Made by a program: the position numbers and the translations under genes. This document shows, piece by piece, positions 6,635 through 42,209 of a stretch of 64,000 bases of DNA. Source of the DNA: an uncultured bacterium (GTDB lineage: Bacteria; Patescibacteriota; Minisyncoccia; Phycocordibacterales; GWA1-40-21); the NCBI GenBank assembly GCA_903831305.1, contig CAIKXE010000002.1:15934-79933 (forward strand), written 5' to 3'. Numbering within the stretch: the stretch's first letter is position 1; each line of letters begins with the position of its first letter. Below the pieces are notes generated by a model. It was not told the origin of the DNA and made no database searches. It worked only from the letters and a program-made list of their open reading frames with translations.

Positions 6635-8377
6635 ATGAGTATATTAGATATTTTAGCCCAAAAAGAAGTAATAAAAAGGGGTGATATTGGCCGGATCAAG
6701 ACTGAGGCTGAATCCGCCGGTGTTCCTCTGGAGCAGATCCTGATAAAATTTGGCGTAAATGAAGATGCTGTTTTAGATGCCAAAGGCGAGTATTATAATA
6801 TTCCGACCAGAAACCTAGAAGGACAGCAGATCCCTTTTTCTATCTTAAAAAATATTTCTGAAGACTCGGCGGTCCATTATAATTTCGTGCCGATCGGGGT
6901 AAAGGACGGGCTATTAGAGGTTGGTATTGTGGATCCTGAAAATATTGAAGCCCGAGATGCGCTAAATTTTATTGCTAGTAAGCTCAATATGCCATTTAAG
7001 CTTTATTTGATCTCAATGGCTGATTTTCAAAAGGTGCTAGATGATTATAAAGGTCTCTCGGGGGAGGTGACAGAGGCCTTGACCGAGCTTCAGTCTGAAT
7101 TAGCCCAAGACTCCGCTAATGTGGAAATCGAGGCCAAGGCGGCAGCTGAGGATCCATTTGAAACCAAGATCGTGGAGGATGCCCCAGTGACCAAGATAGT
7201 ATCAACTATTTTACGTTATGCGACTGAGGGCGGGGCTTCAGATGTTCATATTGAACACATGAAGGACAAGATTCGCGTTCGTTACCGAGTGGACGGCACC
7301 TTAAATACCAGCATTCTTTTACCAGTAGCTGTGCATTCCGCGGTAGTCGCTAGAATCAAGATTTTGTGCAACATGAAGTTGGATGAGAAACGTAAGCCCC
7401 AAGACGGTCGTTTTTCGGCCAAGATTGATGGCCGTAAGATTGATTTTCGTGTTTCTACTTTTCCCACTTTTCATGGAGAGAAAGTCGTGATGAGAATTTT
7501 AGATCAAGAAAAAGGTGTCCAGTCTTTGGACCAGATCGGCTTATCAGAAACTAATTTGGCCTATATCCGTGATGCCATCAGACGGCCTTACGGGATGATT
7601 TTGATTTCTGGTCCAACCGGTTCCGGTAAAACTACCACCATGTATTCTATGTTGAATGAAATTGATAAGGAGGGTTTGAATGTTTTGTCACTGGAGGATC
7701 CGATCGAATATAATATTGAAGGAGTATCTCAATCACAGGTTTTTGCAGACATTGGCTATACTTTTGCCAATGGTCTCCGTACTACTTTGCGCCAGGATCC
7801 AGATGTGATCATGGTCGGAGAAATCCGTGATAAGGAAACAGCTCAGCTGGCGGTGCAAGCGGCTTTGACCGGCCATTTGGTTTTAGCTACTATCCATACT
7901 AATAATGCGGTGGGGGTTATTCCACGACTCATTGATATGGGGGTTGATCCGTATTTGATTGCTCCGACTCTGATTTTAACTATGGCTCAGCGCTTGGTGC
8001 AGACTTTATATCCGGGCACGGGCAAGGCTGTAGCCGTCGATGGTAGCATAAAGGCTATGTTAGATAAGGAGTTTCAGGATTTGCCAGCTGAATATAAGAG
8101 CAAATTACCTAAATTTGAGTCAGTCTATGATCCAGAGGCTTCGGCCATGTGTCCGACCGGTATCAAGGGCCGAATAGCCGTTTTTGAGGCCTTTAAGATG
8201 AATAAAGAGATTGAAAAGCTTATTTTGACAGGTCCGACGGAGGCTAATATTTTTGAATCCCTTCGTAAGCGGGGGATGCTCACCATGAAGGAAGATGCTA
8301 TTATTAAAGCCTTGAATCGGCAAGTACCTTTTAGCGAGGTGGACGGTTTAGGGATGATGGAAGATGAGGAGATCTAG
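6635..8377 (+). CDS. pilB: Type IV pilus assembly (extension) ATPase PilB / GspE family
   Basis: Walker A GPTGSGKTT, ASDVHIE...RYRVDG motif and a C-terminal tetracysteine-like region; 580 aa. Confidence 0.9.
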   Translation: MSILDILAQKEVIKRGDIGRIKTEAESAGVPLEQILIKFGVNEDAVLDAKGEYYNIPTRNLEGQQIPFSILKNISEDSAVHYNFVPIGVKDGLLEVGIVDPENIEARDALNFIASKLNMPFKLYLISMADFQKVLDDYKGLSGEVTEALTELQSELAQDSANVEIEAKAAAEDPFETKIVEDAPVTKIVSTILRYATEGGASDVHIEHMKDKIRVRYRVDGTLNTSILLPVAVHSAVVARIKILCNMKLDEKRKPQDGRFSAKIDGRKIDFRVSTFPTFHGEKVVMRILDQEKGVQSLDQIGLSETNLAYIRDAIRRPYGMILISGPTGSGKTTTMYSMLNEIDKEGLNVLSLEDPIEYNIEGVSQSQVFADIGYTFANGLRTTLRQDPDVIMVGEIRDKETAQLAVQAALTGHLVLATIHTNNAVGVIPRLIDMGVDPYLIAPTLILTMAQRLVQTLYPGTGKAVAVDGSIKAMLDKEFQDLPAEYKSKLPKFESVYDPEASAMCPTGIKGRIAVFEAFKMNKEIEKLILTGPTEANIFESLRKRGMLTMKEDAIIKALNRQVPFSEVDGLGMMEDEEI

Positions 8378-8430
8378 GGTGCTGTACGAGGTCTGTTTTA
8401 TTAGTTAATAATTATGGTATAATTAAAAGT

Positions 8431-8826
8431 ATGGAAAATATAAAACCAAAGGTACTAATTGTAGATGACGACAAGTTCTTGATAAATATGTATTCTATCA
8501 AGTTTAACAAAAGGGAATTTGAAGTAAATTCGGCAATGTCTGGTGAAGACGCTATTAGCAAGCTCAAGGGTGGCTATACGCCGGATATTATTTTATTGGA
8601 TATCGTGATGCCGGTGATGGATGGTTTTGAGATTTTGGAGGCTATTCGGACTAATAATCTGTCACCGAAGTCTCTGATCATCATGCTTACTAATCAAGGC
8701 CAGCTTACGGACATTGAGCGCGCAAAGAGCTTTGGTATTAACGGCTACATTATCAAGGCAACTACTATTCCTTCTGAGGTGGTAGCCGAGGTAGAAAAGA
8801 TTTATAATTTGGCAAAAAAATCATAA
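8431..8826 (+). CDS. Single-domain response regulator receiver (CheY-like; PilG/PilH-like)
   Basis: LIVDDD...DIILLDIVMPVMDG receiver motifs; 131 aa; no histidine kinase seen in the window. Confidence 0.8.
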   Translation: MENIKPKVLIVDDDKFLINMYSIKFNKREFEVNSAMSGEDAISKLKGGYTPDIILLDIVMPVMDGFEILEAIRTNNLSPKSLIIMLTNQGQLTDIERAKSFGINGYIIKATTIPSEVVAEVEKIYNLAKKS

Positions 8827-8830
8827 AAAT

Positions 8831-9892
8831 ATGACCGATTATAAAATATATTTAGCGGAACTCGTAAAAACAGTTGTTAATGAAGGAGCTTCTGATATGC
8901 ACTTATCAGAAGGGCGTCACCCAACGATTCGGGTATCTGGTATGCTTTTACCCCTGGTCAAACATGCCGTACTTTCCAAGGCAGACACCGCTGGTTTGCT
9001 AGCAGAGCTCTTAACCGATAAAAATAAAGAATTATTTTATAGTACCAAGGAGGTAGATTTTTCCTACAGTTTAGATAGCGCCCGTTTTCGTGGTAATGCT
9101 TATTTTCAACAAGGGGCGGTGTCTATTTCTTTACGTCTAGTTCCTCGGGAGATCAGAACTTTTGAAGAATTAAATTTGCCAGATATTTTAAAGACTTTTG
9201 CGGAGAAACAGCAAGGTTTTTTCTTGGTGGTGGGACCAGTGGGGCATGGTAAAAGCACCACTCTGGCAGCGATGATAGATTATATTAATACTAGCCGAGC
9301 AGAACATATTTTAACCATTGAGGATCCGATAGAATATATTTATGAGCAAAAGCGTTCAGTGATAGATCAGCGTGAAGTGCGGATTGATACGGATGACTTT
9401 CCTAATGCTTTACGTAGTATGTTCCGTGAGGACGTAGATGTGGTGCTTATTGGGGAGATGCGTGGGATAGAGACTATTTCCACGGCCGTTACCGCCGGTG
9501 AGACTGGCCACTTGGTGTTTTCTACTTTGCATACAAACAGTGCTTCACAGACGATTGATCGAATCATTGATTCCTTTCCTGGTACTCAGCAAGATCAAAT
9601 CCGTAGCCAGCTGGCTAGTAGCTTGAACGGTATTTTCTCTCAGCGTTTGATACCGCGTATTTCCGGGGGTCTGATTCCCGCTTATGAGCTTTTGATAAAT
9701 AATAGCGCTATCGCAAATTTGATTCGTGAAAAGAGAACCCATGAAATAAACACCGTGATTGAGACCAGCTCTCAAGATGGGATGGTGGATATGAACCGCT
9801 GTTTGGCTGACTTGGTAGCGAGGGGAGAGATCACCATTGAAAATGCTTACCAGTTTTCCTTCAACCCTAAAAACCTAGAACGTCTTTTGTAA
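8831..9892 (+). CDS. pilT: Twitching motility / pilus retraction ATPase PilT
   Basis: 353 aa; Walker A GPVGHGKST; PilT-type motifs ASDMHL and GEMRG. Confidence 0.85.
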   Translation: MTDYKIYLAELVKTVVNEGASDMHLSEGRHPTIRVSGMLLPLVKHAVLSKADTAGLLAELLTDKNKELFYSTKEVDFSYSLDSARFRGNAYFQQGAVSISLRLVPREIRTFEELNLPDILKTFAEKQQGFFLVVGPVGHGKSTTLAAMIDYINTSRAEHILTIEDPIEYIYEQKRSVIDQREVRIDTDDFPNALRSMFREDVDVVLIGEMRGIETISTAVTAGETGHLVFSTLHTNSASQTIDRIIDSFPGTQQDQIRSQLASSLNGIFSQRLIPRISGGLIPAYELLINNSAIANLIREKRTHEINTVIETSSQDGMVDMNRCLADLVARGEITIENAYQFSFNPKNLERLL

Positions 9893-9957
9893 ATTCTTAT
9901 TTGTTGGTCGATTCGTATCATTTGTTCATTTGTAGATTCGTTAATTAATTAGTCAAT

Positions 9958-11163
9958 ATGATTTTTAAATACAAAGCCATAGACACTAGTAATAATCAGA
10001 AGGAAGGCACCATTGAGGCTGTCAGTTTGGAGGTGGCTATTGCTTCCTTGCAAAAAAGAGGCTTGGTGTTATCAAATATCAGTCCAGTAGAGCAAAAGTC
10101 TTTTTTGGAAAGAAATGTCTCTTTCTTAGAGCATATCTCAAGTAAGGATATCGTCATTCTATCTCGTCAGATGGCTACTTTGTTTGAGGCTCAGGTTTCT
10201 GCACTACGCGTTTTTGAGCTTTTGTCCAGTCAGGCCGAGAAGAATTCCATCAGGCAAAAACTATCTGAAATTGCAGGTGATCTCCAGGCGGGCAGTACTA
10301 TCTCAGATGCTTTAGCAAAGCATCCAGATATGTTTTCACCATTTTATGTGAATATGATAAAGTCTGGTGAAGAGTCTGGTAAGCTTGATCAGACTTTGCT
10401 TTATTTGGCGGATTATCTGGACCGGACTCATGAAGTGACCTCTAAAGTGAAGAGTGCTTTAGTCTATCCGGCTTTTATTGTTTTTACTTTTATTGCGGTG
10501 ATGGTTTTGATGCTGACCGTGGTGATACCAAAAATCAGCGCTATCCTGGTGGATTCCGGTCAAGACATTCCCGTCTATACTAAAGTCGTTCTTGGTATTT
10601 CTGGTTTTTTTGTGAGTTATGGGATGTTTATTTTGATAATCCTCGTGGTTGGCGGCTTTTTCCTCTGGCGTTATATTAAGACCGAGGCTGGGCGGTACTC
10701 CTTTGATTCCTTAAAAATTACCTTTCCAGCGATTCAGGTTCTTTATCGCAAGCTTTATTTGTCCAGAATTGCTGACAATATGAACGTGATGTTACTTTCT
10801 GGTATACCTATTGTCCGGGGCTTGGATCTGACATCCAAGGTGGTGGATAATAAGGTGTTTGAAAACTTAATAAACCAGGTGGTGGAAGATGTAAAGACGG
10901 GCAGTTCTATCTCTGATGCAATGATGAAGTCCGGAGAAATCCCCAGTATTTTTATTGCGATGATCAAGATCGGTGAGGAGACCGGTCAGCTGGGTAATAT
11001 CTTGAAAACCTTGGCTTTATTTTACCGCCGAGAGGTGATGAACGCCATAGACACTTTGGTGGGGCTTATTGAGCCAGTGATGATTGTCCTTCTGGGTTTT
11101 GGAGTAGCCTTCTTACTCGCTTCCGTACTTATCCCTATTTATAATCTATCTGGGGCGATGTAG
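9958..11163 (+). CDS. pilC: Type IV pilus platform protein PilC / GspF family
   Basis: 401 aa, two GspF repeats, three TM segments. Confidence 0.85.
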   Translation: MIFKYKAIDTSNNQKEGTIEAVSLEVAIASLQKRGLVLSNISPVEQKSFLERNVSFLEHISSKDIVILSRQMATLFEAQVSALRVFELLSSQAEKNSIRQKLSEIAGDLQAGSTISDALAKHPDMFSPFYVNMIKSGEESGKLDQTLLYLADYLDRTHEVTSKVKSALVYPAFIVFTFIAVMVLMLTVVIPKISAILVDSGQDIPVYTKVVLGISGFFVSYGMFILIILVVGGFFLWRYIKTEAGRYSFDSLKITFPAIQVLYRKLYLSRIADNMNVMLLSGIPIVRGLDLTSKVVDNKVFENLINQVVEDVKTGSSISDAMMKSGEIPSIFIAMIKIGEETGQLGNILKTLALFYRREVMNAIDTLVGLIEPVMIVLLGFGVAFLLASVLIPIYNLSGAM

Positions 11164-20602: not shown

Positions 20603-20673
20603 TCTTACTTTTGTGCCGATGGATGGAATTGAACCATCTTTTGAGGCTTATGAGTCCCCCGTTCTACCATTGA
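20603..20673 (-). tRNA. tRNA-Met (CAT) elongator-type (or tRNA-Ile2)
   Basis: Minus strand GCCGATG-TA-GTTC-AATGGTA-GAAC-G-GGGGA-CTCATAA-GCCTC-AAAA-GATGG-TTCAATT-CCATC-CATCGGC-A. Perfect acceptor, D and T arms with canonical GG and TTC loops; one mismatch at the base of the anticodon stem. Confidence 0.75.
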
Positions 20674-20812
20674 ACTACATCGGCGTTATTTAATTTTCCC
20701 TAGAATCTACCAACAACTACATCGGCGTTATTTAATTTTCCCTAGAATCTACCAACAACTACATAGGCATATTACTTTACCCTATGTCCAACACCAATAA
20801 CTACATCAACAT
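20664..20812. repeat. Tandem 42-bp repeat array (3.5 copies) of tRNA-Met 5'-fragment plus promoter-like sequence
   Basis: Period-42 units CTACATCGGCGTTATTTAATTTTCCCTAGAATCTACCAACAA, two identical and two degenerate. On the minus strand each unit reads TTGTTG-18nt-TAAATA-ACGCCGATGTAG, a -35/-10 pair followed by the first 12 nt of the tRNA and a degenerate D arm. Confidence 0.8.
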
Positions 20813-20894: not shown

Positions 20895-20965
20895 AGCGGG
20901 GTAGAGTAACAGTAATTCGCGAGGCTCATAACCTTGAGATGTACGTGCGAATCGTACCCCCGCAA
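20895..20965 (+). tRNA. Initiator-like tRNA-fMet (CAT) with non-canonical D and T loops
   Basis: AGCGGGG-TA-GAGT-AACAGTA-ATTC-G-CGAGG-CTCATAA-CCTTG-AGAT-GTACG-TGCGAAT-CGTAC-CCCCGCA-A. It has a 1-72 mismatch and an A11-T24 pair like bacterial initiators. It lacks G19 in the D loop and TTC in the T loop. Confidence 0.55.
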
Positions 20966-21065
20966 CAATTAATTATTTTTGTGATCTAGTACTTGTTATT
21001 GGTGTATTTTATTGCTCAAATGTAGATTTTGTGTATAATAATGAGGATCTCATTTTTTTGAGATT

Positions 21066-21380
21066 CATCGCCACGCGGGCGTAGCTCAACGGTAGAGCAC
21101 TCCCCTGTAGACGTGCAGCTTTCCGCCGAGATGCGGATTGAAACTCTCTGGGATAACGGTGAAGGCTAAGTTCCATTTTGGAATATGCGAACACCGTGGG
21201 AACTCTTGTGAGATTTGGGGCCATCGGTCCCGAGTGAAACGAGGGAGCGCCGTAGAGACTAGATACCGGAGTACCCTAACTCACTGTGTGTGAAGGGTAA
21301 AGATATAGTCCATGCCACTATGAAAATAGTGAATTAGTGCACGGGAGAGGCCGTGGGGTCAGCACCCATCGCCCGCGCCA
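21066..21380 (+). tRNA. tRNA-Asp (GTC) interrupted by a group I intron; exons 21066-21099 and 21340-21380, CCA encoded
   Basis: 5' exon GCGGGCG-TA-GCTC-AACGGTA-GAGC-A-CTCCC-CTGT; 3' exon CAC-GGGAG-AGGCC-GTGGG-GTCAGCA-CCCAT-CGCCCGC-G-CCA. The spliced anticodon loop would be CTGTCAC, with G10, C38 and G73 as in tRNA-Asp. Confidence 0.75.
21100..21339 (+). ncRNA. Group I self-splicing intron (about 240 nt) in the tRNA-Asp anticodon loop
   Basis: Contains the conserved group I core elements R (GTAGAGACTAGA, 21253-21264) and S (AAAGATATAGTCC, 21297-21309), which pair as P7 (GACTA/TAGTC). The 5' exon ends in U and can pair CUGU with the intron GCAG at 21106-21109 including a U-G wobble (P1). The intron ends in G. 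There is a P9-like hairpin CCACTATGAAAATAGTG. Confidence 0.75.
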
Positions 21381-21383
21381 GTA

Positions 21384-21406
21384 AAAGCCCTGAATAAGGG
21401 CTTTTC
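21384..21406 (+). terminator. Hairpin with flanking A/T tracts directly after tRNA-Asp
   Basis: AAAAGCCCTGAATAAGGGCTTTT. Confidence 0.5.
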
Positions 21407-21409
21407 TGT

Positions 21410-21587
21410 TGCGCGGGCGAAGCAAGCAAATGATTTTGCTTGCGTTGGGTTGCTGACCGGCGGAGCCAGATTTTTTCAGTAGAAAAAATAGGTGAGCCGG
21501 TGTCCAACCCGAGCCGAGCGACGGCGAGGGGAGAGGTGCGGACAAGCACCCACATTGTTTTGTGCGAGGGAGAGTCCATCGCCCGCG
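21410..21587 (+). ncRNA. Structured ncRNA-like element (about 178 nt) closed by a tRNA-Asp acceptor-like stem; identity unknown
   Basis: The 5' end CGCGGGCGAAGC and the 3' end GGGAGAGTCCATCGCCCGCG copy the tRNA-Asp acceptor and anticodon-stem sequences but lack D and T arms. The interior folds into at least four hairpins. It is followed by the terminator at 21591-21625. Confidence 0.45.
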
Positions 21588-21590
21588 GTT

Positions 21591-21625
21591 AAACCACCCC
21601 AGAAGGGGTGGTTTTTGTTTTTTAA
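21591..21625 (+). terminator. Rho-independent terminator
   Basis: AAACCACCCCAGAAGGGGTGGTTTTTGTTTTTT. Confidence 0.85.
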
Positions 21626-21679: not shown

Positions 21680-22093
21680 ATGGGTACTCAAAAAATTGTC
21701 TGGGATGAAAAATATAGTGTGGGGGTAGAGGAGATTGATAACCAGCACAAGCGGATGTTTGAAGTGATAAATGAATTATTAGAGGCTATAAATACTAATA
21801 CCACTGAGGATCATCTCGGTAATATCATTGACGGGCTTATAAAATATAAGGTATTTCACTTTGCGACTGAAGAAAAATATTTTAAGCAGTTTAATTATGA
21901 AGGAGCAGAAGAACATATACTAAAGCATAAAGAGTTTAATGATAATTTGATGGTTCTAAAGGATAAGTACCCCATCTATAGTGTTGAATTTGCTTTTGAA
22001 TTAGTTGATTTTCTTGAGGATTGGCTTATTGATCACCTCATGATTGTAGATCAAAAATATAAAAAGTGTTTTGCTGAACATGGCTTAAAATAG
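21680..22093 (+). CDS. Bacteriohemerythrin / hemerythrin-like metal-binding protein
   Basis: WDEKYSVGVEEIDNQHKRMF is the classic hemerythrin HHE motif; 137 aa. Confidence 0.8.
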   Translation: MGTQKIVWDEKYSVGVEEIDNQHKRMFEVINELLEAINTNTTEDHLGNIIDGLIKYKVFHFATEEKYFKQFNYEGAEEHILKHKEFNDNLMVLKDKYPIYSVEFAFELVDFLEDWLIDHLMIVDQKYKKCFAEHGLK

Positions 22094-22107: not shown

Positions 22108-23699
22108 ATGTATTCTCTTTTGAAAAAATCATTAAAAAAAACATTCTCTATCCTTTTTGGTTTCCAGTTGTTATTAATCTTAATATTAGGGATTTTAATT
22201 TTTGTTTTATATAAAAATCAGGGTAATTTGGCAAAAAGCCGGGATAATCAGTATGCTTCATATCAGTTGGCTGACCAGCTACGCCAAAGCTCGGATGATC
22301 TTACGCGTATGGTTAGAACTTATGTAGCCACCGGTAATCCTGAGTTTGAGAGGGAATATTGGGCCGTTTTGGATATCAGGAATGGTAAAATTCCTCGTCC
22401 GGATGATTACGATAATATTTATTGGGATTTTGTTTCCGCCACTGGTCAAAAACCACGCGCTGATGGAACCGCCGTTTCTCTGTATGATTTGATGGTTAAA
22501 GAGGGTTTCACTGAAGAAGAATTAAATAAACTATCTTTGGCTAAGAAAAATTCTGATGGCTTAGTAAGGGCAGAGACTGTGGCTATGAACGCCATGAAGC
22601 GGTTATTCGTTTCCGTATTGACGGTATGCTGCGCCTCGCCGGTTCGGTGACGATGGAGTATTATGAAAATGTTTTAAATCGCATAAAGATTCAGTCAAAC
22701 TTGCGCACCGATGAGCACTTCTCACCTCAGGATGGAGCTATCCGTTTTATAAATAAGGATTCATCAGTAGATTTGCGTGTTTCTATCGCCCCGACCCTTG
22801 ATGGTGAGAAAGTCGTAATCAGGATTTTAGCAGAATATGTTAAGGGTTTAACCTTTGTGGATTTAGGTTTTTCTGATTATCATATCAAGCTGATTGAAGA
22901 GGCCTCTAAGAAGCCCTTTGGTATGATTTTGGTTTCCGGGCCAACCGGTTCTGGTAAAACCACATCTCTCTATGCTTTGATAAAAAAGTTGAATACTCCA
23001 GAAGTAAATGTCACCACTATTGAGGACCCAGTAGAGTACCGGATGTTTGGAGCTAATCAGATTCAAGTCAATCAAAAAACTAATTTAACTTTTGCCAAAG
23101 GTCTCCGGGCAATTGTTCGTCAAGACCCCAATGTCATTTTGGTCGGAGAAATACGTGATGGAGAAACTGCCGAAACGGCTGTAAACGCGGCTTTAACCGG
23201 ACACTTATTACTTTCTACTTTTCATGCTAATGACGCTGCTACTAGTATTCCTAGATTGCTAGAAATGAATATTGAGCCTTTCCTTTTAGCTTCCACTTTG
23301 GAGCTCATTATCGCTCAGCGTTTGGTCCGCCGGGTTTGTGAGTCCTGCCGTTATGGCTATAAAGAAAAGATATCAGCCATGAAGGAAACATTTCCACAAG
23401 CAAAGGACTATTTTGCGGGGACTGAAATTACTCTGTATAAGGGCAAGGGCTGTTCTACTTGTAATGGGACTGGTTATAAGGGTAGAACCGCCATTGTGGA
23501 GATGATCAATGTCACAAGGGCAATTAAGGAGTTGATTAATAACAAGCCTTCTTCCGAGGAGGTGTGGAAGTTAGCTAAAGCCGAGGGGGCTAAGTCACTC
23601 TTTGCTGACGGAATAGAAAAGGTGAAGATGGGCGTGACTACCCTAGAAGAGGTGATCCGAGTGGCCTCACCAGGTGAGATAGTTGATTTTAAAATTTAA
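22108..23699 (+). pseudogene. Chimeric, frameshifted GspE/PilB-family ATPase: TM + CHASE3-like sensor segment (22108-22650, frame 1) joined out of frame to an ATPase core (22557-23699, frame 0)
   Basis: The ATPase frame opens right after a stop at 22554-22556, directly at the conserved HEAVIRFRIDGML motif. It carries Walker A GPTGSGKTT, the Asp/His boxes and a C-terminal CxxC...CxxC, but lacks the N1/N2 domains. The upstream frame encodes a TM segment plus a segment resembling sensor-domain consensus (YVATGNPEFEREYW). Confidence 0.55.
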
Positions 23700-23702
23700 A
23701 AT

Positions 23703-24812
23703 ATGAAATTTGATTTTAAAAAAAGTCCAAAATCTTTTTGGCGCGGATCCTTCATTAAATTACGTTCTTTTGGTCTGCATAATGAGTCAAACTTTTTTAT
23801 TCAAAACTTAGCGGTACTGATTGGAGCGGGGATCGGTATTCCAGACGCTTTGGAATCAGTGCAGCAGGAAATAAAATCCTTTCGCATGCGCTCGGCCAAT
23901 AAAGAAATTATGGAAAGTGTAAATGAGGGCTTATCACTTTCCCGGGCGATAGAAAGAGCCGGTATCGTCGCTCCACACACCTTGGCCCTTATCTCTTTGG
24001 GGGAAGTATCTGGTCGTTTGTCAGCTAATCTCCAGGTGGCCGCCTTGCAAAATGAAAAAGAAGCCGCCTTTCGTTCTCGTATTCGTTCAGCTTTAGCTTA
24101 TTCTTCCTTTGTCTTTGTGACCGCTCTCGTGGTGGGAATAGGTGTGGCCTGGTTTGTATTACCAAAGATTGCTTCATTCTTTAGCGACCTGAATGCGCCA
24201 CTTCCGTTTATAACTAAATGGATTATCGCGGTGGGAGTTTTTCTCCAGGATTATGGTTACGTCTTTGTCCCATTATTTTTAATTATCATTGGTATCCTGT
24301 TTTACTTCCTCTTCTCTTTTCCCAAAACTAAATTTGTGGGCCACACTATTCTTTTTCATATCCCGATTATAAGAAAACTTATTTTAGAAACAGAAGTCTC
24401 TCGTTTTGGTTTTTTTTCTGGGACTATGGTGTCCGCCGGTATCCCGATCCAGAATGTCTTTGATCTCTTGCCGTCAACTACCACTTTTGGAAATTATAAG
24501 GATCTCTATATCTATCTAGCTAAGAGCGTGGGGGAGGGGTCATCTTTTCAGAGAATGTTTTTAGAATATAAGAATTTAAATTCTCTTTTTCCTTTGCCGG
24601 TTCGGCAGATGATTGTGGCCTCGGAAAAGTCTGGAACCTTGTCAGAAATCCTGCTGAAAATCGGAGCTCTATATGAGGCCAAGGTAGAGACCACTTCTCG
24701 TAACATTCCAGCCTTCCTCGAGCCAGCCCTGCTTCTGTTTATTGGAGTCGTCGTGGCTATTTTAGCTTTGGGTATTCTTGTTCCGGTCTATAATTTAGGT
24801 CTTTATTTTTAA
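23703..24812 (+). CDS. GspF/PilC-family inner-membrane platform protein
   Basis: 369 aa; two GspF repeats and three TM segments. Confidence 0.8.
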   Translation: MKFDFKKSPKSFWRGSFIKLRSFGLHNESNFFIQNLAVLIGAGIGIPDALESVQQEIKSFRMRSANKEIMESVNEGLSLSRAIERAGIVAPHTLALISLGEVSGRLSANLQVAALQNEKEAAFRSRIRSALAYSSFVFVTALVVGIGVAWFVLPKIASFFSDLNAPLPFITKWIIAVGVFLQDYGYVFVPLFLIIIGILFYFLFSFPKTKFVGHTILFHIPIIRKLILETEVSRFGFFSGTMVSAGIPIQNVFDLLPSTTTFGNYKDLYIYLAKSVGEGSSFQRMFLEYKNLNSLFPLPVRQMIVASEKSGTLSEILLKIGALYEAKVETTSRNIPAFLEPALLLFIGVVVAILALGILVPVYNLGLYF

Positions 24813-24818
24813 TTTAAT

Positions 24819-25247
24819 ATGAAGAAAGGCTTTTCTCTAATTGAAATGATTGTAGTCATCGGTATTATAAGTATTGTTGGTTCTATTTCTCTGGTGACTT
24901 ATAATACTTTGCGTTATGTGGGTGATGCTCGGCATGCCGCTTATGTTTTTGTGGATGCTCTAAAGGAAGCTCAGAATAAGGCTAAAATAATGGAGTATGA
25001 TACCGCCTGGGGGGTAAAAGTTAATACTGCTGATGCTGTGGTTTTTAGTGGAGCCTCATATTCCGGCCGTGAGACGTCACGAGACAAAGTCTACATAATA
25101 CCAAAAGATTTAATAATTTCTGGACCCACGGAAATAGTTTTTGCCAAGTTTACTGGTCTGCCAAATACTTCTGGTACCACTACTTTTTCTAATGCTTTTA
25201 GCACGAGCACGGCTTATGTTTGGTCCAGTGGAGTAATCGGTTATTAA
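24819..25247 (+). CDS. Prepilin-type N-terminal domain protein (pseudopilin)
   Basis: MKKGFSLIEMIVVIGIISIV. Confidence 0.8.
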   Translation: MKKGFSLIEMIVVIGIISIVGSISLVTYNTLRYVGDARHAAYVFVDALKEAQNKAKIMEYDTAWGVKVNTADAVVFSGASYSGRETSRDKVYIIPKDLIISGPTEIVFAKFTGLPNTSGTTTFSNAFSTSTAYVWSSGVIGY

Positions 25248-25250
25248 TTT

Positions 25251-27728
25251 ATGTTTAATTTTTTTTCAAAAAAAGGTATGACAGTGGTGGAGACGGTAGT
25301 GGCCGTTGGTATCTTTGCTATTTTGTCTACTGTTGCTTATGAAATCTATATTGGGGTGGATAATCTGGTCAAGCGGGCGGATCAAAAGTCTACCGCCTTA
25401 TGGTTAGCTGAGGAAGGAATAGAAGCCGTAAGGTCAATTCGGGACGAAAATTTTACTAGCCTAGCTGATGGTACTTATGGTCTATCAGCCTCGGGTAATA
25501 AATGGGTTTTGGCTGGTAGTTCTGATGTGGTGGATAATTATACGCGTGTTTTAAATATTTCCACTATCTCGGCAAACGAAAAAGATGTCTTGGCTACTAT
25601 CAGTTGGAATTATAAAACCCAAAATAATTCTTTAAGCTTGAATAGTCGGCTGACAAATTGGCATAAGGTGGATTATAATGCTGGCTTGACGGTGGAAAAA
25701 GTGATTATTAATCACGGTGGTAATGCTACCTCGACTACCTTTGCTCCTTACACAGTGAGTATTACGGTCGGTACTAGCACCACTGATACGGTGGTAGAAG
25801 CGGGAGCCACTAATCAGTTTATGCCTGGTACTTATACGGTGACGGAAACAGCAGATCCAAATTATACTCAGTCCTTTGATCTGGATTGTAACGCCCTAGG
25901 TGAGGTGACTGTAGCCACCAGTAGTACCAAGGTCTGCCGTATTATCAATGAAGAAAAGCCGGCTAAATTACGGGTAAACAAAACCGTTATTAATCATGGT
26001 AATAGCAAGGTTGTTTCAGACTTTTCCTTACGAGTGGATTCTAACCCCGTTACTTCTGGGGCTTTAAATACTTTTGACTCTGGAGTGCATACTGTTTCTG
26101 AAGTGGTGGATGCTGAGTATGATACGACGATCGGCGGTGATTGTAATAGTGGTGGTTTAGTCACTCTGGTGCCTAATGTGACTAGGACCTGTTCGGTCAC
26201 TAATGAAGAAAAGTTATCTTATGTGACGGTTTATAAAAATATAATTAATCATGGGGGGACCGCGGTTACGGCAGATTTTGCTCCTTATAAAGTGGGGGCC
26301 ACGACTGTGACCTTAGGAGCTACGACCACCAAAAATTCCGGCACCTATACCGTGACAGAGACGGTGGATCCGGCTTATACTCAAACTTTTAGTGGGGATT
26401 GTAATGGTTCTGGTTCTATCACCCTCATTGGTGGTATGACTAAGACTTGTACCATTACTAACGAAGAAAACTTTGTCGTTCCGACGGTGACGATTCCTAC
26501 TGTTACCTCCATCACTCAGACTACGGCTACTTTGGGAGCGACAGTGGCTTCCTTGGGCGTGCCACACAGTATTTCCGCTCGGGGTACTTGCTGGGGGACA
26601 ACATCAAATCCAGTTACTAACTGTGTGGCAGAAGGCGGAACGACTACCGGTGTCTTTACTCAGGCTCGCACCGGATTCACCGCGGGTACGACTTACTACT
26701 ATCGCGGTTACGCTACAAATAGCACCGGGACTGGTTATTCTGCCGATGGGACCTTTACTACTTTGACGGCCAATGTGGTGCCAACAGTCACTACGCCGAC
26801 GGCAACTGCTATTACTTCAAATTCTGCTACTTTGGGGGCGGATGTTACTTCTCTTGGTATTCCCGCTACTATTACGGCTAGGGGTACTTGCTATGGTACA
26901 ACACCAAATCCAGTTACTAACTGTGTGGCAGAAGGTGGAACTACTACCGGAGTTTTTACTCAGGCTCGCACCGGATTCACGGCGGGTACGACTTACTACT
27001 ATCGCGGTTACGCCACCAATAGCACCGGGACGGGTTATTCAGCCGATGGGATGTTTGCCACTGTTGCTATCTGCTCAGTGGCAGCCGCAACGGTGGGTAC
27101 TCCTACGACTTATGATAATGCCGGATCTGTTTCGGCGGTGGTGGCTAAGCCAACTGGTGTGACTCAGGGTGATATTATGTTTGCTCAAGTTTTTCATTTT
27201 AATAGTACGGATCGATTTACTACCACACCAGCGGGTTGGACGGAAATTGGTCGTCATAAAAATGGTAACTATAATCAAGCTCTGCTCTATAGGGTCGCCA
27301 CCGCTGGTGAGGGAGGAGTTTCAAACTATACCTTCAGTCTTGTTTCAAGTTCTAAATTAGCGGTTACTATTTCTGCCTATCGCGGTTGTTTTGACATTGC
27401 AAATCCGATTGATAGTTTCTCTAATGTGGAGTATGTGGTAAATAATACTACCTATCGGGCTGGTAGTATTAATTTGTCAGCCGCTAGCACCACCGTTTTA
27501 ATGTTTCCAAGTGTTTATAATGGTTCGGTTAGAACTTTTTCTCCTCCTTTGACACAAGGTGGGGGCTGGACCGAGGATCATGATCATGGAACAAATACGG
27601 CTGACTTCTCTCGAGCCGGCTATCGTAAATTTATTTCCAGCGCAGGAGCTACCGGTGTGATAGACAGTATAGGAAACTCTAATAATAATGCTAAGCATGC
27701 TTTTGCTGTCGGTTTGCATCGTTTATAG
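25251..27728 (+). CDS. Large (825 aa) prepilin-leader protein with repeated beta-sandwich domains (pilus-associated adhesin candidate)
   Basis: N-terminus KKGMTVVETVVAVGIFAIL is a prepilin-type motif. Three about 90-aa repeats (VINHGG...TVTETxDPxYTQxFxxDCN) are followed by two about 95-aa near-identical repeats (TCxGTTxNPVTNCVAEGGTTTGVFTQARTGFTAGTTYYYRGYATNSTGTGYSADG). Confidence 0.75.
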   Translation: MFNFFSKKGMTVVETVVAVGIFAILSTVAYEIYIGVDNLVKRADQKSTALWLAEEGIEAVRSIRDENFTSLADGTYGLSASGNKWVLAGSSDVVDNYTRVLNISTISANEKDVLATISWNYKTQNNSLSLNSRLTNWHKVDYNAGLTVEKVIINHGGNATSTTFAPYTVSITVGTSTTDTVVEAGATNQFMPGTYTVTETADPNYTQSFDLDCNALGEVTVATSSTKVCRIINEEKPAKLRVNKTVINHGNSKVVSDFSLRVDSNPVTSGALNTFDSGVHTVSEVVDAEYDTTIGGDCNSGGLVTLVPNVTRTCSVTNEEKLSYVTVYKNIINHGGTAVTADFAPYKVGATTVTLGATTTKNSGTYTVTETVDPAYTQTFSGDCNGSGSITLIGGMTKTCTITNEENFVVPTVTIPTVTSITQTTATLGATVASLGVPHSISARGTCWGTTSNPVTNCVAEGGTTTGVFTQARTGFTAGTTYYYRGYATNSTGTGYSADGTFTTLTANVVPTVTTPTATAITSNSATLGADVTSLGIPATITARGTCYGTTPNPVTNCVAEGGTTTGVFTQARTGFTAGTTYYYRGYATNSTGTGYSADGMFATVAICSVAAATVGTPTTYDNAGSVSAVVAKPTGVTQGDIMFAQVFHFNSTDRFTTTPAGWTEIGRHKNGNYNQALLYRVATAGEGGVSNYTFSLVSSSKLAVTISAYRGCFDIANPIDSFSNVEYVVNNTTYRAGSINLSAASTTVLMFPSVYNGSVRTFSPPLTQGGGWTEDHDHGTNTADFSRAGYRKFISSAGATGVIDSIGNSNNNAKHAFAVGLHRL
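26480..27065 (+). repeat. Intragenic tandem duplication (2 x about 285 bp, about 88% identical) within the 825-aa gene
   Basis: Nucleotide blocks 26494-26760 and 26781-27050 align nearly base for base. Confidence 0.8.
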
Positions 27729-27777
27729 TATTATATTTTATATGGTTATAAAAAAATTACATAAAAAAAGCGGGGGG

Positions 27778-28263
27778 ATGACCTTGGTGGAAACGCTAGT
27801 GGCTATTGCTATTATGTCCCTGCTGATGCTTACGGTGGCTTCTTTGTTAGCTAGTACTTCTAAAAGTGAAAAGAGGAACAGAGTGATTACCGAAGTAGAA
27901 TATCAGGCTTCCGCTCTTATTTATGAGATTGCTCAGTCTGCTCGTAATGCAAGCTCTATTGTGAGTCCGCTTGTGGCCGCTACTTCTACTACCTTAAATT
28001 TAGTTTTGTCTTCAGTGCCGGCCGAGAGCCCAACTATTTTTTCTTTGACCGATCAAGCCCTATATGTGTCTCGTGGGGGAGCGGCGGCTGAGCCGATATC
28101 AAGTGACACCATACTCGTGACGGGTCTGACCTTTGAAAATATTTCTGCCTTAAATACCCATGGGGCTATCAGAGTCACCCTCAATGTCCAGGGAGCAAAT
28201 CCAAATAATAAGCCCGAGCTTGTTTATGCCACTAGCCGGACTACCACAATCACATTAAGATGA
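27778..28263 (+). CDS. Prepilin-type N-terminal domain protein (pseudopilin)
   Basis: MTLVETLVAIAIMSLLML preceded by GGGGG as an SD-like sequence. The track ORF starts at 27688 and overlaps the upstream gene; 27742 is an alternative start. Confidence 0.7.
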   Translation: MTLVETLVAIAIMSLLMLTVASLLASTSKSEKRNRVITEVEYQASALIYEIAQSARNASSIVSPLVAATSTTLNLVLSSVPAESPTIFSLTDQALYVSRGGAAAEPISSDTILVTGLTFENISALNTHGAIRVTLNVQGANPNNKPELVYATSRTTTITLR

Positions 28264-28658
28264 AAATTATTAATTACAAAAATAATAAAGAAGGATTTGC
28301 CTTGCTTTACGTTATGCTGGTCTTGGCTAGCATTATTGTGGGTCTAGCTTTATCCGCTAATCAGTCGGCTTTTTTCTCGGCTAATCGGTTGAAATCATAT
28401 TCTAATTCGGCGGAGGTAAGGATGATAGCTGGTTATTGTGGGGAAAATCTTTTGATGCAGATTAGGGATAATCCAGCGCTTGTTACCACTGGTACTCTTA
28501 GTTATGCTGGTGGGTCTTGCACTTACAGTATTTCCGGTACCGTACCAGTCAAAGTGATAACCATTATTGCTTCAAAAAATAACATTTATAAAAAGCTCAC
28601 TATCACCACTTCGCAAATTTACAGCACTATTGAGGCTACCTGGGTAGAGACAAATTAG
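28260..28658 (+). CDS. Pilus-associated hypothetical protein with N-terminal TM (PilX-like)
   Basis: EGFALLYVMLVLASIIVGLAL with conserved Cys residues; 132 aa. Confidence 0.5.
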   Translation: MKIINYKNNKEGFALLYVMLVLASIIVGLALSANQSAFFSANRLKSYSNSAEVRMIAGYCGENLLMQIRDNPALVTTGTLSYAGGSCTYSISGTVPVKVITIIASKNNIYKKLTITTSQIYSTIEATWVETN

Positions 28659-35866: not shown

Positions 35867-36271
35867 ATGGAAAATACACAAAAATTTACTCCTGGGACCA
35901 AGATCGTCATTGTGGAAGATGACAAGTTTCTTGGTGGTTTGGTTTTTAAAAAATTAATTGAAGAGGGTTGTACTGTCCGTCATATTGAAAGTGGAGAGAG
36001 AGCTCAGGCCTCAATTGAATCAGAAATACCAGATTTGATATTTTTGGACTTACTTTTGCCCGGCGTTAGTGGTTTTGATATTTTGGCTGGTTTAAAGAAA
36101 AATGATGATACCAAAGATATTCCAGTGGTTCTTTTGTCAAACTTAGGTGAGAGGGATGATATCCGAAAAGGTCTGGATTTAGGAGCAACTAGTTTTCTAA
36201 TCAAGGCGTCTATGACGGTAGATAGTATTATTGCTGAGGCCTCAAGAATCCTTCGAGCCAGGAAGAAATAA
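35867..36271 (+). CDS. Single-domain response regulator receiver protein
   Basis: IVIVEDDKFL...DLIFLDLLLPGVSGF...KDIPVVLLSN receiver motifs; 134 aa. Confidence 0.75.
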   Translation: MENTQKFTPGTKIVIVEDDKFLGGLVFKKLIEEGCTVRHIESGERAQASIESEIPDLIFLDLLLPGVSGFDILAGLKKNDDTKDIPVVLLSNLGERDDIRKGLDLGATSFLIKASMTVDSIIAEASRILRARKK

Positions 36272-39371: not shown

Positions 39372-39440
39372 TCATATCTTTGTCCGCTTGTCTTGGACGA
39401 GCGGATTGTAGGTTTGGCTATTTTTATTGAAACAAAAGAG

Positions 39441-41135
39441 ATGCCTTTAACACTAGAAAAATTAAAAGAAATACTAGTTTCGGGCAACTATGTCAATGAA
39501 CAAAGTTTGGAAAATGCGGCGGCCACCGCTTTAAAAAAAGGTGAGCCTATAGAAGTGGTTTTGGTGCGGGAAGAAATGATTAAGGATGAAAAGCTGGGGG
39601 AGGCAATTTCCAAGTATTATAATGTCCCTTATACGGATTTGCGAGAGGAAAATATTCAAAATGATTTATTGGAAATGTTACCTGAGGCGGTAGCTTTGAA
39701 GCAAAATGCCGTGATTTTTGCTAAAACTGATGAGGGTTATAGCTTGGCTACTTCAGAACCGACTAATCTGAGTTTTATAAAAAGCGTGGATCAGTCTACT
39801 GAAGGACGAATCAAGATTTATTATGCTACTCCTTCCGGGATGCTTGAGGCTTTTAAGGCCTATAAGAATAATATCTTCAAGAATGTCTTGGATCTGATTG
39901 AAAACTATAAAGTGCACAATGATGAAAATAGTGTGGTGCTTCTGGTCAATCAGTTTTTGGAATATGCTTATGATAATAATGCTTCAGATGTACACATAGA
40001 GCCTTTGGCAAATAATGTGGTGTCTGTTCGTTTCCGTATTGATGGTATTTTGACTGAGGTGGTGCGTTATCCGATCGAGATGCATGACAAGATTATTTTT
40101 CGGGTAAAGATCATGTCTCACCTCCGTACGGATGAGCGCGGAGCGACGCAAGACGGTCGCTTTGAATATAAAACTGATCAGATGGAGTTTGACGTGCGTG
40201 TCTCTATTTTGCCAATTACTAATGGAGAAAATATTGTTTTTCGTATTCTCTCTGAGCGAGCCAAGAAAGTCCAGCTTGAGGATTTGGGTTTGAGTACTTT
40301 TGACTTAATAAAGGTTAAAAGGGCTATTGCTCAGCCTTATGGTATGATACTCGTGGTGGGGCCAACGGGGGCCGGTAAGACTACTACTTTATATTCTCTT
40401 ATTCAGATTTTAGCCGCCTTACCTATCAGTATTGTGACCATTGAAGATCCAGCAGAATACAGTATTGATAAGGTTCAGCAGATTCAGGTAAATCTGAAGA
40501 AAAATATTACTTTTGCCAATGGTCTACGTTCTATTGTGCGTCAGGATCCAGATGTGATTATGGTGGGAGAAATCCGTGATAGTGAGACCGCCAGTATTGC
40601 AGTGAACGCCGCTATGACTGGTCACCTTTTGTTTTCTACTTTGCATGCCAATGATTCGGCCACTATCTTTCCACGTTTGTTTGAGATGGGGGTGGAACCA
40701 TTTTTGGTAGCTTCCTCCATTAACGTGGTAGTAGCCCAGAGACTAGTCAGAAAAGTCTGTCCAAATTGTCGGATTAATTATCCTAAAACAGCGGCTGATA
40801 TCCCAGCCATTTTAGAGCAAGAAAAAACACCACAGTTTAAGGCTATGATGTCTAGGTTTTTTCCTAATAAGGAGCTTAAGGATATCAAGCTTTATCGGGG
40901 AACTGGTTGCAAGGCCTGCAAGCATACCGGTTACTTGGGGCGTATTGCCGTGTTTGAAGTGATGGAAGTGGATGATGATGTGCGAGCTTTAATCAGCGTC
41001 AAATCTTCCTCTTCAATGGTTAAAAATAAAGCCGAAGCCAATGGTATGACGCTTATGTATTACAATGGTTTGGTGCACTTGTTTAATGGTATCACCACCT
41101 TTGATGAATTAGAGGGGCTTTCCAATTTTGATTAA
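39441..41135 (+). CDS. Second PilB/GspE-family pilus ATPase
   Basis: Walker A GPTGAGKTT, ASDVHIEP...RFRIDG, C-terminal CPNC...CKAC zinc motif. The track start at 39393 was moved to the ATG at 39441 preceded by AAAGAG. Confidence 0.85.
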   Translation: MPLTLEKLKEILVSGNYVNEQSLENAAATALKKGEPIEVVLVREEMIKDEKLGEAISKYYNVPYTDLREENIQNDLLEMLPEAVALKQNAVIFAKTDEGYSLATSEPTNLSFIKSVDQSTEGRIKIYYATPSGMLEAFKAYKNNIFKNVLDLIENYKVHNDENSVVLLVNQFLEYAYDNNASDVHIEPLANNVVSVRFRIDGILTEVVRYPIEMHDKIIFRVKIMSHLRTDERGATQDGRFEYKTDQMEFDVRVSILPITNGENIVFRILSERAKKVQLEDLGLSTFDLIKVKRAIAQPYGMILVVGPTGAGKTTTLYSLIQILAALPISIVTIEDPAEYSIDKVQQIQVNLKKNITFANGLRSIVRQDPDVIMVGEIRDSETASIAVNAAMTGHLLFSTLHANDSATIFPRLFEMGVEPFLVASSINVVVAQRLVRKVCPNCRINYPKTAADIPAILEQEKTPQFKAMMSRFFPNKELKDIKLYRGTGCKACKHTGYLGRIAVFEVMEVDDDVRALISVKSSSSMVKNKAEANGMTLMYYNGLVHLFNGITTFDELEGLSNFD

Positions 41136-41144
41136 CCCTAAAAT

Positions 41145-42209
41145 ATGAAAATCAATTTATCATTTTTTAATAAAATATCACTGGAGGACCAAATCAGTTT
41201 TTCCAAAAATTTGGCGGTACTGCTTCGCGGTGGAGTGACGATCAATGAGGCGGTGGATTCCTTGGCTAGCCAGTCCAAGGGTAATATGCGCAAGGTTTTG
41301 TATCGTATCAAAGGTCATTTGGAAAATGGTGTTTCTCTTTATTCGGCTATCAGTGAAGAACCAGGGGCTTTTGGCCAGATTTTTATGAGTTTGGTCAAGG
41401 CGGGCGAGCTCTCAGGTTCCTTGTCTGAAAACTTGGAGTTTTTAGCCACCTGGCTCGAGCGGGATAGTAATCTGAGGCGAGAGATCAATGGTGTTTTGCT
41501 TTATCCCAAGATCGTTTTGACCGCCGTGGTCCTGCTTGGTGGTGGGTTATCTATTTTTATTTTGCCTAAATTAGTACCGATGTTCACCAGTCTTAACGTG
41601 ACTTTGCCCCTGATTACTAGAATAGTTTTGGCCGTTTCGGTCTTCCTACAGTCTTATTGGGTAAAGGTTATTGTCGGCACTTTCTCCACCATTACCGCCA
41701 CTTTTTTAATTTTTAAAATCCCTGTTATGAAGTACCTTTACCATAAAACCTTGGTTCATTTCCCTTATATTCAGAAATTTATTGTAGGGTATCAGCTGGC
41801 TCTCTTTTCTCAGTTGATGGGGACCCTGCTAAAGTCAGGTATCCCGATCGACGAGGCTTTAGAAGTAGCTTATGTAGGGACATCAAATTTGTATTATAAA
41901 AAAGTATTAAAGGAAATAATGGATCGGACTAATATGGGGGTATCATTGGTGGGAACAATGCATCTTTATCCCGAGCTTTATCCGGCAAACTCTTTGAGTA
42001 TTTTGTCTGTAGGAGAGAGTAGCGGAACGTTGGAGGACTCCTTTTTTAAGATTTCGGAATTTTGGACTAAAGATATTTTGGATCGGACCAAGCTCTTACC
42101 AACCATTATTGAACCAGTTCTTTTGGTAGTCATTGCGGCGGCGGTGGGAATGATCGCTCTTTCTATTGTCATGCCGATTTATAAACTGACCGGAAATTTG
42201 AAGAATTAG
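41145..42209 (+). CDS. Second PilC/GspF-family platform protein
   Basis: 354 aa, GspF repeats, three TM segments. Confidence 0.8.
   Translation: MKINLSFFNKISLEDQISFSKNLAVLLRGGVTINEAVDSLASQSKGNMRKVLYRIKGHLENGVSLYSAISEEPGAFGQIFMSLVKAGELSGSLSENLEFLATWLERDSNLRREINGVLLYPKIVLTAVVLLGGGLSIFILPKLVPMFTSLNVTLPLITRIVLAVSVFLQSYWVKVIVGTFSTITATFLIFKIPVMKYLYHKTLVHFPYIQKFIVGYQLALFSQLMGTLLKSGIPIDEALEVAYVGTSNLYYKKVLKEIMDRTNMGVSLVGTMHLYPELYPANSLSILSVGESSGTLEDSFFKISEFWTKDILDRTKLLPTIIEPVLLVVIAAAVGMIALSIVMPIYKLTGNLKN

Follow-up and report, generated by a model that had tools for sequence, protein, structure and literature searches.

At positions 22108-23699 of a 64,000-nucleotide stretch from an uncultured Patescibacteriota bacterium (GenBank assembly GCA_903831305.1, contig CAIKXE010000002.1; the whole stretch is called the window below), a membrane-anchored sensor-like open reading frame (ORF) runs into the ATPase core of a PilB/GspE-type motor in a different frame. 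The locus raises the question whether it is one gene broken by a frameshift, a new kind of signal-responsive secretion ATPase, or the residue of two separate genes. Judged by comparison with related genomes, the apparent frameshifted fusion is a deletion scar and not a new signal-sensing ATPase. It is very likely that a single deletion of ~4.65 kb, within an operon running from a hemerythrin gene to a set of pseudopilin genes, produced the locus, probably as a young pseudogene pair.

Two ORFs on the forward strand occupy the locus. The first (180 aa, 22108-22650, frame +1) encodes a hydrophobic helix, FSILFGFQLLLILILGILIFVLY, at the N terminus and a soluble segment behind it, as an earlier annotation made from the letters of the window (the sequence-only reading) had described. 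The second (357 aa, 22626-23699, frame 0) overlaps the first in a different frame. The ATPase frame itself opens at 22557, directly after a TGA at 22554-22556, and stays open through 23699, again in agreement with that reading, and it overlaps the sensor ORF by 94 nt at an offset of -1. The reading also held that the ATPase frame begins exactly at the box IRFRIDGML, which proves to be incorrect. The first 13 codons of the frame (WLSKGRDCGYERH, 22557..22595, forward strand) are not PilB codons but sensor DNA read out of frame, and PilB homology starts at the E (GAA, 22596-22598) of EAVIRFRIDGML, the first PilB-derived codon in the window.

To the left of this point, codons 1-164 of the 180-aa ORF (22108..22599, forward strand) are a sensor-gene remnant comprising the first transmembrane (TM) helix and roughly two-thirds of the extracytoplasmic domain. 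Of the 77 homologues of the 180-aa product, the full-length ones (298-324 aa) consist of a TM helix, a ~190-aa extracytoplasmic domain, another TM helix and a coiled coil at the C terminus. The parent family, of ~313-324 aa with this TM-sensor-TM-coiled-coil layout, is labelled methyl-accepting chemotaxis protein (MCP) or CHASE3 in some sources, and Pfam and NCBIfam searches with the sensor fragment and with the full-length sensor of a related contig (L016) gave no family above noise. The remnant carries the N-terminal TM helix and the LRQSSDDLTR...YV.TG...IRNG..PRP motifs of the family, and is 92% identical to the 324-aa L016 sensor by tblastn (residues 35-164) and 89% identical across all 164 codons. 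Similarity breaks off at AMNAMK|G, with nothing aligning past K163; after AMNAMK, homologues read GLFEDSQGNFT... and the window reads RLFVSVLTVCCASPVR and a stop. The family alignment has 13 invariant and 34 near-invariant columns, none of them beyond residue 162 apart from P178, a spurious column that falls in the out-of-frame tail. The alignment ends at residue 163 of ~313-324, and the remnant is without a complete extracytoplasmic domain, the second TM helix or the coiled coil. The tail of the sensor ORF (RLFVSVLTVCCASPVR, 22600..22650, forward strand, ending in the TGA at 22648-22650) is pilB DNA in the wrong frame, and the same DNA read in frame 0 encodes the conserved AVIRFRIDGMLRLAGSV.

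To the right, the PilB/GspE ATPase remnant (22596..23699, forward strand) corresponds to residues 189-556 of a full-length 556-aa orthologue, P0198, to which it is 92.4% identical over the shared part (75-86% to other full-length orthologues). Orthologues carry ASDIHFEPQGK just before EAVIRFRIDGML, and this segment is wholly absent from the window. The Pfam T2SSE profile matches the remnant with E = 6.5e-111 at positions 34-370 only, and the MshEN/N1 domain found no Pfam match in it, bearing out the earlier remark that the ATPase frame has no N1; both PilB paralogues in the window have MshEN and a full T2SSE match. The NCBIfam equivalogs score below their cut-offs (TIGR02538, PilB, 416.8 bits against 675.65; TIGR02533, GspE, 426.4 bits against 630.25). 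Homologues of the remnant number in the thousands; among the matches listed, 119 other PilB homologues are 444-595 aa long, nearly all with MshEN and T2SSE, and the 357-aa ORF of the window is the shortest of the 120, the next being 444 aa. The Walker A motif GPTGSGKT(T), the Walker B motif VILVGEIRD, the His box TGHLLLSTFHAN and the tetracysteine zinc motif (CESC ... CSTC, which aligns with that of the paralogue at 39393) are all kept.

The arrangement from which these two halves derive is seen in relatives, the closest named of which are metagenome-assembled genomes (MAGs) labelled Candidatus Paceibacteria, Candidatus Saccharibacteria or Patescibacteria group. The ancestral order, represented by eight related Patescibacteria loci, is hemerythrin, sensor, histidine kinase, three receivers, PilB (~550 aa), PilC and pseudopilins, in which the kinase (~780-790 aa) has the architecture dCache-HAMP-PAS-HisKA-HATPase and the receivers are single-domain proteins of ~125 aa. 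The complete operon is present in contigs L006, L008, L014 and L016, the last being a contig of a GTDB representative MAG with an intact 324-aa sensor, a 791-aa histidine kinase, three receivers and PilB. Contig L007 opens with a truncated upstream ORF and then has the kinase, three receivers, PilB and PilC, and L013 starts inside the kinase and continues with three receivers, PilB and PilC. In L009 a full Che cluster takes the place of the kinase, and three receivers still precede PilB. Three receivers thus stand directly upstream of a ~550-aa PilB in L006, L007, L008, L009, L013, L014 and L016; two receivers in L012 and one in L010 are visible before the contig ends. At this site the window has no kinase or receiver match, and a search of all 64 kb for relocated copies gave nothing beyond weak matches (~30%) to receiver genes at 8431-8826 and 35867-36271, which are unrelated.

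Both flanks of the locus are collinear with the relatives. On the left, gatA, a 209-212-aa gene, tRNAs and the hemerythrin gene follow the order of L008. The left anchor is the bacteriohemerythrin gene, the first of the operon (21680..22093, forward strand; Pfam Hemerythrin 1.8e-11, NCBIfam bacteriohemerythrin 1.2e-35); its counterparts in this position share 75% (L008) and 86% (L016) identity with it. On the right, PilB from residue ~187 to its end, PilC and four pseudopilin-like genes are collinear with L008. The 369-aa PilC/GspF-like platform gene (23703..24812, forward strand; two Pfam T2SSF stretches, 5.2e-36) is 77-82% identical to its orthologues in L006, L008, L009 and L010 and 90% to that in L013. 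The pseudopilin-like genes (142, 825, 191 and 132 aa; 24819..28658, forward strand) match the prepilin N-terminal methylation motif and are collinear by tblastn with L008 genes of 141, 834, 175 and 129 aa. The platform gene and the pseudopilin genes after it are intact, as had been stated from the letters of the window.

The sensor gene resembles an exchangeable cassette. Between the window (22108-22599) and L016 (895-1386), the synonymous divergence (dS) of the sensor is 0.40, at 89% nucleotide identity, whereas the flanking hemerythrin and pilB genes have dS >2 against the same contig (77-82% nucleotide identity); in other relatives this slot is taken by unrelated sensors (PAS or dCache_3). 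The pattern implies recent lateral replacement of the sensor, and the deletion can be no older than that replacement.

The junction itself can be placed to within four bases. Window position 22596 aligns both to L016 position 1383, in the sensor gene, and to L016 position 6032, in pilB, two sites separated by 4,649 bp. Sensor-specific sequence ends at T22595 and pilB-specific sequence starts at C22600; the GAAG between them (22596..22599, forward strand) is common to both inferred ancestral breakpoints: the L016 sensor reads ATGAAGGGGTTATT, L016 pilB reads GGGGAAGCGGTGGTT, and the window reads ATGAAGCGGTTATTC. In codons, the window has GCC ATG AAG CGG TTA TTC GTT TCC, the L016 sensor has GCC ATG AAG GGG TTA TTT GAA, and PilB orthologues have (G/A)AG GA(A/G) GCG GT(T/A/G) (A/G)TT CGT TT(C/T). 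If the pilB of this lineage already had its present GTT ATT, the GAAG would lie within an imperfect 12-nt match, GAAGnGGTTATT. An undeleted allele would continue past the junction as ...ATGAAGGGGTTATTTGAA....

Collinear flanks, truncation of both genes and GAAG at both sites are what a deletion between short repeats leaves behind, and we infer that microhomology-mediated illegitimate recombination or replication slippage made it. Like pseudogenes formed by short-repeat deletion, the locus has two genes truncated head to tail, 4 nt shared and an out-of-frame join between collinear flanks; its mechanism is deduced from the sequence of a relative (sensor side ~89% identical in nucleotides). The two frames differ because the join is out of phase, and a single-base event is, from the aligned junction, neither needed nor implied.

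That last point bears on the explanation offered earlier, namely that a one-base indel within a single gene splits a ~530-aa chimera. The arithmetic holds, since a single-base change anywhere in 22557-22650 would formally join the frames into ~530 codons (164 + 366), but relatives hold the two halves in two genes 4.65 kb apart. The A-run at 22650-22660 that had been named as the candidate homopolymer error is not there. Within 22540-22670, only AAAAA at 22546-22550 is a homopolymer of at least 5 bases; since it precedes the TGA, an indel in it could not fuse the frames, and the interval in which fusion could occur contains no such run.

The junction is also reproducible. It recurs in the JGI contigs L004 (3300045650; 3,887 bp) and L005 (3300045653; 2,536 bp), each of which differs from the window by one base (99.96-99.97% DNA identity). 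The exact 180-aa product is found on contigs of up to 80-83 kb in ENA ERZ1426747 and ERZ1426769 and also under JGI, NCBI and Logan sources, with the gene order 180/357/369/142 aa in all, and the deletion allele, with 13 contigs, is the only one found for the species in public data. Because the same junction comes from independent samples and assemblies, it is not a sequencing or assembly artefact. No match came from scanning the GTDB species representatives for the exact 46-nt junction, the species or contig not being among those representatives; scans of metagenome contigs for the hypothetical undeleted allele and for a sensor-side 30-mer also gave 0, in a collection that misses the known L004/L005 sequence as well.

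The same fusion, whose presence in related genomes had been proposed as a check, occurs in none of the 77 sensor and 120 PilB homologues listed. A sequencing or assembly error hiding one TM-sensor-ATPase chimera, possible by codon count, is thus very improbable given the identical sequence on independent contigs of up to 83 kb, the derivation of the parts from two separate genes, and a build in which a sensor domain cut at two-thirds would be joined to an N2 domain without its first elements. The idea of a novel fusion masked by sequencing error is refuted on these grounds. With the frame repaired, the chimera would consist of half a sensor domain and a clipped N2, two broken folds.

Fusion of the frames in vivo by programmed -1 ribosomal frameshifting is the least credible alternative. 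The 94-nt overlap at an offset of -1 would suit such a mechanism, but 22557-22650 contains no X XXY YYZ slippery heptamer, and the only heptamer, GGGTTTC at 22503, precedes the in-frame TGA at 22554. The overlap, moreover, is accounted for by the deletion and is conserved in no relative.

We turn to the functional state of what remains. The deletion ran from sensor codon 164 to pilB codon 189. Lost from the sensor are its distal third, the second TM helix and the coiled coil, and from PilB residues 1-188 (MshEN/N1 and the start of N2); the kinase and the three receivers are gone altogether. Because the join is out of phase, the sensor ORF stops after 17 nonsense codons and the ATPase frame has no native start. 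In GspE/PilB/PilT ATPases, N2 packs against the C-terminal domain of the neighbouring subunit in the hexamer, and N1 serves docking and regulation. Judging from this domain anatomy, both remnants are probably non-functional, because the truncated motor lacks a complete N2, N1 docking and its regulators. The intact pilC and pseudopilin genes would then still be transcribed from the upstream promoter but be orphaned, and either depend on one of the window's two full-length PilB paralogues acting in trans or be heading to decay.

Of the two outcomes first proposed for the locus, a pseudogene is therefore closer to the truth than a fusion, but in two respects the earlier description does not stand. 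The ATPase is the positional orthologue of the PilB belonging to this locus and not a decaying paralogue, and the lesion is a 4.65-kb deletion and not a 1-bp frameshift.

How much of N2 is missing can be read from crystal structures. The Thermus PilF constructs comprising N2 and the C-terminal domain (5it5, 5oiu, 6ejf) begin at orthologue residue 160-164, and the remnant begins at residue 189, or at 199 if the first ATG (22626) is used, ~25-35 residues past the construct starts. The first helix and the ASDIHxEP strand, ~25 residues, are missing, and N2 is thus incomplete.

Several observations weigh against the deletion having produced dead remnants, or for a very recent event. The 367-codon open ATPase frame is clean and has all catalytic motifs. 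It keeps 98 of the 98 near-invariant positions (those conserved in at least 97% of the 120 PilB homologues), from which other sequences deviate at a median of one position; with all motifs and all 98 positions kept, either the deletion is recent or the remnant is still used. The divergence of the remnant is not accelerated relative to PilC, and its ratio of non-synonymous to synonymous divergence (dN/dS) against the closest intact orthologue is 0.029, compared with 0.036 for PilC, values obtained with saturated dS. Translational coupling is conceivable, as the GTG at 22647 in the ATPase frame overlaps the stop TGA of the sensor ORF at 22648-22650 (GTGA). The microhomology was read from the relative L016, the ancestor of the window's own lineage not having been recovered. 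The sensors of L008 and L006 (247 and 518 aa, PAS/dCache_3) are not homologous to that of the window; this does not undermine the deletion model, because L016 has the matching sensor family at the same position.

Some of these points would be expected if the clipped ATPase were still made by re-initiation at one of its first in-frame start codons (ATG 22626, GTG 22647, ATG 22653) and worked with PilC as a regulator-independent motor, a form of regulatory bypass. We consider this unlikely. The intact frame with its motifs and near-invariant positions, the absence of excess divergence, the GTGA overlap, the intact downstream operon, and the fact that no other allele of the species was found among the 13 public contigs all speak for it. 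The product would nevertheless be without N1 and without the helix and strand that open N2, and none of the 120 closest homologues is truncated this far, the shortest having 444 aa. Native genes in the window start behind AT-rich leaders, but the three candidate starts sit in GC-rich coding sequence and lack this context. Equal conservation is also expected from a merely recent deletion, and since dS to all intact relatives is saturated (~2 or undefined), dN/dS covers only the long history before the deletion. More doubtful still is the version in which the deletion was adaptive: loss of the kinase, the three receivers and the N-terminal regulatory/docking region of the ATPase at a single stroke would have given a constitutively active, N2-clipped mini-PilB, translated by GTGA coupling (22647-22650) and still powering the pilus. 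If true, it would mean that neither N1 nor a full N2 is indispensable to a PilB.

For the pseudogene pair left by the deletion, the lack of decay in the remnant indicates a young event. A neutral remnant with 0 of 98 invariant codons changed has, as a rough estimate, an age of at most ~1.4% divergence, a bound that fits the compared strains, which are 99.97% identical. The sole two single-nucleotide polymorphisms (SNPs) between strains, K94R and T66P, are both non-synonymous and both in the sensor remnant, and T66P alters a residue conserved in at least 90% of sensor homologues; with n = 2, they are a weak hint of relaxed constraint there.

The ATPase half belongs with the PilB/PilF type IV pilus extension ATPases of the GspE superfamily (6f8l, 5tsg, 5zfr, 5it5), with which its C-terminal 367 residues align end to end; the full-length orthologue matches solved PilB/PilF structures with E ~1e-100. 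Like these, the remnant has Walker A, Walker B, the His box and the tetracysteine motif, and genes for a PilC platform and pseudopilins follow it. Unlike these, it is without MshEN/N1, the first ~25 N2 residues (helix and ASDIHxEP strand) and a native start codon, and it falls short of the NCBIfam equivalog cut-offs given above.

CheY-like single-domain response regulators are reported to act on the type IV pilus motor in several bacteria, including PilG/PilH in Pseudomonas, PixG/PixH/TaxP1 in Synechocystis and DrdR in Xanthomonas (PMC10519157, PMC11181946, PMC13507683). Similarly, relatives of the window organism encode three receivers and a kinase (a Che cluster in L009) immediately upstream of PilB. 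The window differs from such systems in that it has lost the receiver module, and it has no covalent sensor-ATPase link. The signal-responsive arrangement imagined for the fusion is realised in relatives in the usual way, in trans, in a form that resembles known receiver-to-PilB control. The conserved operon suggests that oxygen- or iron-linked signals control a type IV pilus-like machine in bacteria of the candidate phyla radiation (CPR).

In practical terms, the public entries for a 180-aa "methyl-accepting chemotaxis protein" and a 357-aa "GspE/PilB-like protein" in this lineage should be taken for the two halves of the deletion scar, neither working genes nor a new fusion. At one of its three type IV pilus-like loci the population no longer has the dedicated motor or any of the signalling input, a case of gene loss still under way in a genome that is already reduced. 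The ancestral operon with its exchangeable sensor is the more useful by-product of the analysis, as it suggests that Paceibacteria-like organisms regulate pilus activity in response to the environment.

Three type IV pilus-like ATPase/platform loci lie within the 64 kb, at 6635-11163, 22596-28658 and 39393-42209. The first contains PilB (580 aa, 6635-8377), a receiver-like 131-aa gene, PilT and PilC; the last contains PilB (580 aa, 39393-41135) and PilC, followed by a 1,208-aa ORF. In the locus discussed here, the 825-aa pseudopilin-like protein (25251-27728, forward strand) has two near-identical internal repeats of ~90 aa (…PTVT…ARGTC.GTT.NPVTNCVAEGGTTTGVFTQARTGFTAGTTYYYRGYATNSTGTGYSADG…), and its orthologues vary in length from 471 to 861 aa.

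Upstream of the hemerythrin gene, a tRNA-Asp(GUC) gene (21075-21380, forward strand) has its anticodon loop (CUGU|CAC) split by a 231-nt group I intron (21109-21339; Rfam RF00028, 46.5 bits, slightly short of the gathering score of 50). ARAGORN folds the joined exons as tRNA-Asp but missed the gene in the genomic sequence. The tRNA-Asp genes of L016 and L014 are intron-less, with exons exactly abutting, and that of L008 has the intron. Immediately upstream of the intron-bearing gene, L008 has a LAGLIDADG-type ORF (2099-2776; weak Pfam match) with no counterpart in the window.

Directly after tRNA-Asp lies a GC-rich, strongly structured element of ~175 nt (21412-21588, forward strand; z = -7.2 against shuffles), with a hairpin on either side (21383-21405 and 21591-21614). 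The acceptor stem of tRNA-Asp recurs as a copy in the closing stem and 3' end of the element. L008 conserves the element, with changes in the hairpins that look compensatory; it is unmatched in L016 and L014, and has no Rfam match at E <= 0.01. Further upstream are two tRNA-Met genes, at 20613-20684 (reverse strand) and 20895-20966 (forward strand). Adjoining the first, at ~20672-20810, are tandem ~43-nt copies of aactacatcggcgttatttaattttccctagaatctaccaac, two exact and then degenerate by eye; each copy starts with the terminal bases of the tRNA-Met gene, and the array could be an integration or att-like footprint.

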